DNA of 64,000 bases from Escherichia coli (lineage in GTDB: Bacteria > Pseudomonadota > Gammaproteobacteria > Enterobacterales > Enterobacteriaceae), in assembly GCF_003334385.1 (NCBI RefSeq), contig NZ_QOWN01000021.1. One strand, written 5' to 3'. Made by a program: the position numbers and the translations under genes. Below the pieces are notes generated by a model. That model ran no database searches. It saw only the letters and a program-made list of their open reading frames with translations, and was not told the DNA's origin. Positions within the stretch are counted from its first letter, which is position 1. Each line of letters begins with the position of its first letter. Positions 24,549 to 25,136 of this stretch are shown here, one piece after another.

Positions 24549-25136
24549 AATTTTTCCTGTCTCCAGGCCCCAAAGTAAATAATAAAAAATTCCTAAAGCT
24601 TAAGGAAAAAATATGCCCAATAAATTGGCGATGAATGCTGATTAAAATCAAGAAAAACTGCCATTAAGACATTGAAGTTGCTGTTTTTATACATAGATAA
24701 CAAAACGCATATTTAGCGGTTGGCAATTATCACATAATAATGTGTGCAAATTGATGGTGGATTGATGCAAATTTGTTAATTGCAATGGTGTTAGCTGCGG
24801 TTGTGCGCTCAAAAAATAATCTAATATGAGCATAGGTTGACGATATATATTATATACTTCGTTAAGATGATTGTTGTATCTCGTTAAAAAATAAAATAAT
24901 TTTTCCTTGATTGCATTTTGTCATCAAAAAAGACTTGGTTTTTCTTTTTTGACTATTCCCATCGCAGAAAACGACGCATCATCTTTAATCGATGCGCGGA
25001 AATATTTAACTTGAACAAGCGGAAATAAATAGAGCAGCTATTCAGATTATTCTTTATGTTGGGTCTATTAAGGTTATGTTAATTGTAGCTTTGCTATGCT
25101 AGTAGTAGATTTTTGATAAATGTTTTATGGTCACAA

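Follow-up and report, generated by a model that had tools for sequence, protein, structure and literature searches.

The 588-bp gap between dcuC and pagP (positions 24549–25136 of the window, by which we mean the whole 64,000-nucleotide stretch of Escherichia coli DNA analysed here) is very probably a divergent, multi-input transcriptional control region common to dcuC, transcribed leftward, and pagP, transcribed rightward, and not a gene. An FNR-type promoter occupies the dcuC end, a PhoP-type promoter occupies the pagP end, and Escherichia-specific AT-rich DNA fills the middle. This main reading of the region is already known; what is new here is the divergence of a 200-bp core (24800–24999) in that middle part.

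The window is a segment of a K-12-like E. coli chromosome in which dcuC lies on the minus strand with its start codon ending at 24548, and pagP (formerly crcA) lies on the plus strand with its ATG at 25137. The 788 bases around the gap have matches in 5,414 of the 5,426 complete E. coli genomes, and in almost all of these they occur once. Window positions are converted to MG1655 coordinates by adding 631,420 (NC_000913.3) or 630,643 (the older U00096.2). The latter offset is verified, since the published FNR motif at 655,281 falls exactly on its own sequence at window position 24638. Neither the curated MG1655 RefSeq record nor the PGAP annotations contain an annotated feature between the two genes.

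The composition of the gap is largely as a preliminary description of this DNA had stated. None of its ORFs reaches 60 aa; the longest has 48 aa. The GC content of 0.313, compared with 0.504 for the whole 64-kb window, is the minimum for segments of this length anywhere in the 64 kb, and just 0.1% of 588-bp windows are equally AT-rich. The reported A/T tracts are also present (26 tracts of at least 4 nt); their AA/TT helical phasing is not significant, with 8% of shuffles reaching the observed periodicity. The short direct repeats mentioned in the same description are at chance level: the longest exact repeat is 10 nt, compared with a shuffle mean of 9.6, and is equalled in 49% of shuffles. 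A repeat search returned just two-copy families of 12–15 nt.

Several features of the neighbourhood were recorded in passing. At window position 25386, the window carries T and MG1655 carries C, so that codon 84 of pagP reads TGT (Cys) in place of CGT (Arg); further differences from MG1655 nearby are at 24531, 24801, 26708 and 26720. The cspE leader (25687–26129) matches the Rfam cspA thermoregulator (RF01766) with 124 bits, above the gathering score. The ybeM gene (deaminated glutathione amidase, 26605–27399) is an intact ORF of 264 aa in the window and a frameshifted pseudogene in MG1655 and a K-12 derivative.

Divergent promoters of dcuC and pagP

We fetched 80 pagP loci from other Enterobacteriaceae; 50 loci, among them the one in this window and those of three further E. 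coli strains, were usable, with dcuC divergent from pagP. The spacers of all usable loci are AT-rich and variable in length: 281–307 bp in Klebsiella/Raoultella and related loci, 403 bp in Salmonella arizonae, about 411–465 bp in Citrobacter, about 437 bp in Enterobacter and 558–588 bp in Escherichia, with longer spacers in a few other loci that carry unrelated inserts. Alignments split the E. coli spacer into three parts. The dcuC-proximal part (24549 to ~24790, about 240 bp) is conserved and carries a ribosome-binding site, a -10 hexamer and an FNR box. The pagP-proximal part (~25040–25136) is conserved in Escherichia and in part also between genera. The middle (~24790–25040, roughly 250 bp) is an Escherichia-specific AT-rich spacer with no counterpart outside Escherichia. 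Among the proteins encoded nearby, PagP (25137–25697) of E. coli shares 83–88% identity with its counterparts in the other Escherichia species, compared with 98% for DcuC and 100% for CspE; PagP evolves unusually fast for its neighbourhood.

The FNR box CTGATTAAAATCAA (24638–24651, minus strand) matches TTGAT-N4-ATCAA at 13 of 14 positions, with a single mismatch. It lies at a fixed 28-nt offset from the dcuC -10 hexamer (24610–24615, minus strand), which reads CATATT in Escherichia and CACATT in other genera. Box and hexamer are found with identical spacing in 48 of the 50 enterobacterial loci, and the genera that keep this spacing include Escherichia, Citrobacter, Enterobacter, Klebsiella, Raoultella and others. 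The FNR-box segment is the sole block recognised by BLAST across genera. Since the centres of box and hexamer are 32 bp apart, a distance that is invariant across genera, FNR centred at 24644.5 would be located at -41.5 of a start near 24603, which corresponds to class II geometry. We infer this start from the promoter geometry; it predicts a dcuC 5' UTR of about 52–55 nt (24549–24603, minus strand) with the ribosome-binding site GGAGACAGGAAAAATT ahead of the ATG. FNR bound to its box, 41.5 bp upstream of that start, would switch dcuC on when oxygen is absent.

Binding of FNR to this site has been demonstrated experimentally. The same 14-mer is listed in Table S6 of Myers 2013 at U00096.2 position 655,281 (window 24638) as bound in FNR ChIP, with the ChIP-seq summit at about window position 24655. 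In the same study, dcuC is classed as directly FNR-activated, and its expression is 20-fold higher anaerobically. With class II FNR promoters of the dmsA/narG type, dcuC shares the near-consensus box, the published FNR ChIP binding and the anaerobic induction, and with the predicted start it would also share the -41.5 centring and the distance to the -10 hexamer. It differs from them in that its start is a prediction and that the then-known dcuC TSS falls outside the FNR peak (Myers 2013); a further dcuC promoter may therefore exist, and the FNR promoter may not be the sole one. The only sigma-70 peak that the oxygen-dependent peak table of Myers 2013 gives for the spacer lies at the pagP end, away from the FNR promoter.

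Upstream of the FNR box, a block at 24660–24790 is conserved mainly within Escherichia. It includes TGTTAATTG at 24774–24782, and its TGTTAAT motif recurs in several other genera. Park 2013 reported ArcA-dependent expression and predicted an ArcA site somewhere in the dcuC–pagP spacer, and this block is a candidate for that site; a search of the spacer with the ArcA consensus gave no match at three or fewer mismatches. We set aside a 14-nt inverted repeat through which the -10 region could pair with the dcuC ribosome-binding site: its transcription would require a putative promoter further upstream, and the repeat is not kept in genera other than Escherichia.

At the other end of the spacer, the core pagP promoter is confined to about 90 bp adjoining pagP. 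Its -10 hexamer, TATGCT (25095–25100, plus strand), is the positional orthologue of the Salmonella pagP -10 TATTAT, which was placed by S1 mapping (Zwir 2012), and the distance from the TTAA half-site to the -10 hexamer is 23 nt in both E. coli and Salmonella. Occupancy by sigma-70 has been shown experimentally: the ChIP-seq peak assigned to dcuC/pagP in Myers 2013 maps to ~25099 and grows from 37 to 366 when oxygen is absent, and crcA expression is 3.4-fold higher under anaerobic conditions in the same study. The position of the -10 hexamer predicts a pagP 5' UTR of about 30 nt (25107–25136, plus strand), which would leave no room for a leader peptide or an attenuator.

Two PhoP-box-like direct repeats precede the hexamer on the plus strand. 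Repeat a, TCTTTATGTTGGGTCTA (25051–25067), has two mismatches and ends 27 nt upstream of the -10; repeat b, TATTAAGGTTATGTTAA (25066–25082), has three mismatches and ends 12 nt upstream of it. The two boxes overlap, and matches at this stringency of two to three mismatches are common, with 191 in the 64 kb compared with 138 expected. Box b sits in the -35 position, and its 12-nt distance to TATGCT is one of the spacings of PhoP-activated promoters (12 or 21–23 nt). Harari 2010 places the crcA PhoP site 32 bp from the TSS and the Salmonella site 44 bp away, and the position of box b is consistent with the former distance. The TTAAG half-site of box b is kept across genera and lies within PhoP sites that have been footprinted (Salmonella) or listed (Yersinia). 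Box b is the better placed of the two and would be the one that PhoP uses. In the main reading, the pagP promoter is a weak sigma-70 promoter with no usable -35, the PhoP-type repeats (25051–25082) lying over the -35 position in its place, so that it would need phosphorylated PhoP or other activators.

The PhoPQ regulation of pagP that the preliminary description had given agrees with published work, in which PhoP acts on pagP; Chalabaev 2014 and Harari 2010 cite crcA/pagP as a member of the PhoP-activated Mg2+ stimulon. Like the promoters of this group (E. coli crcA/pagP and Salmonella pagP, 'architecture IV'), the sequence has a weak -10 and candidate (T/G)GTTTA-N5-(T/G)GTTTA-like repeats over the -35, and it has the TTAAG half-site in common with the Salmonella and Yersinia PhoP sites. 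It departs from Salmonella pagP in that the footprinted Salmonella box is 23 nt from the -10, whereas the best-placed E. coli box is 12 nt away, one helical turn closer (Harari 2010). Also, both E. coli boxes are degenerate, with two to three mismatches each.

Regulators, insertions and possible transcripts in the spacer

Repression of pagP by H-NS has been established experimentally, with 18-fold derepression in an hns mutant (Chalabaev 2014). According to the same study, the induction of pagP in biofilm requires SlyA and does not require PhoP or EvgA, and RcsB and GadE have been identified as further activators of pagP (Szczesny 2018; Yamanaka 2014). In genomic SELEX, the dcuC/pagP spacer is bound in vitro by H-NS and by RpoD holoenzyme alone (Shimada 2014). 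The AT-rich DNA between the two promoters (~24655–25050) would serve as the platform from which H-NS silences pagP in planktonic cells; this silencing is relieved by SlyA, RcsB and GadE. Within the spacer, the H-NS motif matches no more often than expected by chance. The SlyA consensus TTAGCAAGCTAA has no match with three or fewer mismatches out of 12 inside 24549–25136; Chalabaev 2014 reports three looser SlyA-site matches.

With promoters that are silenced by H-NS and counter-silenced by SlyA (hlyE, the K5 capsule promoter, Salmonella pagC), pagP shares AT-rich upstream DNA (GC 0.31 compared with 0.50, in the lowest 0.1% of windows), the strong derepression in an hns mutant and the dependence on SlyA. 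It differs from them in being an ancestral core gene rather than a horizontally acquired one, and in having no match to the SlyA consensus.

The preliminary description had proposed that the gap probably holds a complex promoter with nucleoid-protein binding. The regulatory part of this idea is right, and because the regulation of the spacer has been published (H-NS with its 18-fold effect, SlyA, RcsB, GadE and PhoP, together with the H-NS signal in SELEX), it was also already known. The length of the gap is explained differently: it is not one large pagP promoter, since ~90 bp form the pagP core, ~240 bp belong to dcuC, a share that the description had overlooked, and ~250 bp are Escherichia-specific spacer. 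The gap was correctly observed and is an ordinary, well-characterised divergent promoter region; the control of pagP is already well described, and the finding of an AT-rich gap adds nothing to that description.

Two promoter-like elements are located in the middle of the spacer. The element TTAAGA-17-TAAAAA (24862–24890, plus strand), from Shimada 2014, points in the pagP direction and lies under the in vitro RpoD holoenzyme SELEX peak. The element ATGACA-17-AATTAT (24896–24924, minus strand) points in the dcuC direction and was obtained both by Shimada 2014 and, as the single hit, in our promoter scan. In O157, a similar CTGACA-17-AAAAAT is found 3 bp away from the position of the minus-strand element, and no counterpart of it was found in the allele of a B2 strain. 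Overall, the spacer contains fewer sigma-70-like promoter matches than shuffled sequences (1 compared with 4.6). Published genomic SELEX also shows selection of the dcuC/pagP spacer in vitro by RpoN holoenzyme and NtrC. The corresponding site would be at about window position 25117 (U00096.2 655,760, if that coordinate system applies), and inspection by eye revealed no canonical -24/-12 element (GG-N10-GC) near it.

These in vitro data also bear on whether the spacer encodes an RNA, an option that had been kept in view together with a leader peptide. An independent sRNA in pagP orientation has a precedent in Shigella flexneri, where 'Ssr31' (about 295 nt) was predicted computationally between pagP and dcuC on the pagP strand and was positive in RT-PCR (Wang 2016). 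RNA polymerase holoenzyme binds mid-spacer in vitro, plus-strand hexamers are available at 24862–24890, and the O157 and B2 alleles have a weak plus-strand terminator-like hairpin at about 24960–24976. However, RT-PCR is the sole experimental basis for Ssr31 and was not strand-specific, the K-12-type allele is without the plus-strand hairpin (our scan of this allele found no plus-strand terminator-like site), and conservation within the spacer is lowest in the candidate region. An Rfam search at an E-value of up to 1 over 23000–27000 returned only the cspE leader and chance matches, none of them in the spacer. In one Cappable-seq set (plus strand, one growth condition), no TSS is recorded between U00096.2 positions 653,077 and 656,393, as would be expected if, in that growth condition, the pagP promoter is silent and no sRNA is made. 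We therefore consider an sRNA of this kind improbable.

RNA folding gives a similar picture. In 100-nt windows on both strands, one of 48 z-scores is below -2.5; this value is marginal (-2.66, minus strand, 24900–24999), and the hairpins of that window are disrupted in other E. coli lineages. The plus-strand z-scores are unremarkable, and no significant structure supports the small RNA that had been envisaged. A short GC-containing hairpin, ACGCATC...GATGCGC (24974–24997), is terminator-like on the minus strand only and is not conserved: in O157, three substitutions in its arms disrupt base pairing on the minus strand, while G-U pairs remain on the plus strand.

The spacer is a recurrent target of insertion sequences. 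IS5 insertions arose in it repeatedly under kanamycin selection (Hoeksema 2018). In natural E. coli isolates, we observed IS5-like ISKpn26, IS3 and IS1 elements inserted into the dcuC–pagP spacer or replacing it (positions 3033–4207 of locus L087 and 1–1758 of locus L095), which echoes the laboratory insertions. Such targeting, together with the restriction of the central 250 bp to Escherichia and the shorter spacers of Klebsiella, Raoultella and Citrobacter, would be in line with a central part that is itself a decayed mobile or horizontally acquired element, whose origin would explain both its AT-richness and the binding of H-NS. This explanation is improbable, since the central part is single-copy in 5,377 genomes, has no foreign homologues and has terminal inverted or direct repeats no better than expected by chance. 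It also contains no ORF remnants resembling the inserts found in other genera, and a plasmid collection yields no matches other than this locus itself, carried by E. coli replicons with a plasmid label, some of them as large as a chromosome.

A leader peptide or small protein encoded in the spacer and regulating pagP or dcuC is very improbable. Among the many short ORFs, only the 10-codon ORF at 24613–24645 (plus strand, AGGA-N6-ATG) is intact in six of six Escherichia sequences. Its overlap with the conserved dcuC -10 and FNR box explains its preservation, and it shifts frame and length in other genera. All other spacer-internal ORFs of at least 10 codons are broken in at least one lineage among the six sequences, and the predicted pagP 5' UTR has a length of only about 30 nt. 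Neither of the two hidden-gene options is thus supported, and the search for short conserved ORFs was negative beyond this one. The divergent control region remains the preferred reading of the gap.

Hypervariable core of the spacer

Positions 24800–24999 form a hypervariable core that differs by 14–17% between E. coli lineages, compared with 0.8–3.6% in the flanks and 5–9% at four-fold degenerate sites; it occurs as mosaic alleles and is unalignable outside E. coli. Relative to O157:H7, 33 of 200 core positions are mismatched (16.5%), whereas the flanking 1.7 kb differ by 0.8% and four-fold sites in the same 64 kb by 4.7% (P = 4e-10). Relative to the B2 strain APEC O18, there are 28 mismatches in 200 positions (14%), with 3.6% in the flanking 1.7 kb and 8.5% at four-fold sites in the same 64 kb (P = 0.007). 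Of 6,348 sliding 200-bp windows compared with O157, only one is more divergent than the core; in the comparison with B2, the core is the fourth most divergent locus. AT-richness alone is not the cause of this divergence, since the equally AT-rich citC–dpiB spacer differs by only 0.3% (O157) and 1.8% (B2).

Two other divergent stretches of the window were noted in these comparisons. The most divergent 200-bp window relative to O157:H7 (~40341–40540, 34 mismatches) lies inside lptE. The ybdN–citR stretch (~4881–6340, GC 0.33–0.36) is 24–31% different from the B2 strain and only 1.7% different from O157; it is probably a replaced allele.

When 5,377 genomes are compared, identity of the 161-bp core to the K-12 type has a bimodal distribution: 3,276 genomes have at least 95% identity, 83 have 90–95% and 2,018 have 80–90%. 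Some strains are mosaic, with break points inside the core, and EC20 and O157 have the same core allele between different flanks. Both observations indicate that core alleles are exchanged by recombination.

The promoter hexamers suggested by SELEX fall within the hypervariable core. The core seems to be under little sequence-specific constraint, and it changes faster than neutral sites. The most likely sources of its divergence are exchange of alleles that separated long ago and a mutation rate that is raised locally in DNA bound by H-NS, alone or together. Alternatively, old alleles may have been kept by selection, or a loss of constraint may have combined with recombination.

Our literature search found no paper that mentions the hypervariable core. 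In its above-neutral divergence, its mosaic alleles and its H-NS-bound location, the core resembles fast-evolving or 'switched' E. coli intergenic regions and the diversification of H-NS-bound DNA (Higashi 2016). It differs from 'switched' regions in that it is still homologous and not replaced, and in that it comprises ~200 bp between two conserved core promoters. According to a 2024 study, E. coli regulatory DNA is generally highly conserved, and the core departs from this pattern.

It is conceivable, and in our estimate rather unlikely, that the core is a fast-evolving regulatory module whose old, recombining alleles (K-12, O157, B2 and mosaics) set lineage-specific H-NS silencing or cryptic promoter activity for pagP and/or dcuC; a variant of this proposal would have an unannotated transcript under diversifying selection. 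The location of the core in a spacer in which kanamycin selection repeatedly yields IS5 insertions hints that changes here have a phenotype, and the core is the only part of the region that might repay further work.

By palmitoylating lipid A, PagP influences TLR4 signalling, the resistance of the cell to antimicrobial peptides and how well biofilm bacteria survive in vivo, and the pagP control region is of medical interest for this reason. If the core does act as such a module, its alleles would tune lipid A palmitoylation, and E. coli lineages would consequently differ in immune detection and in resistance to antimicrobial peptides or aminoglycosides.
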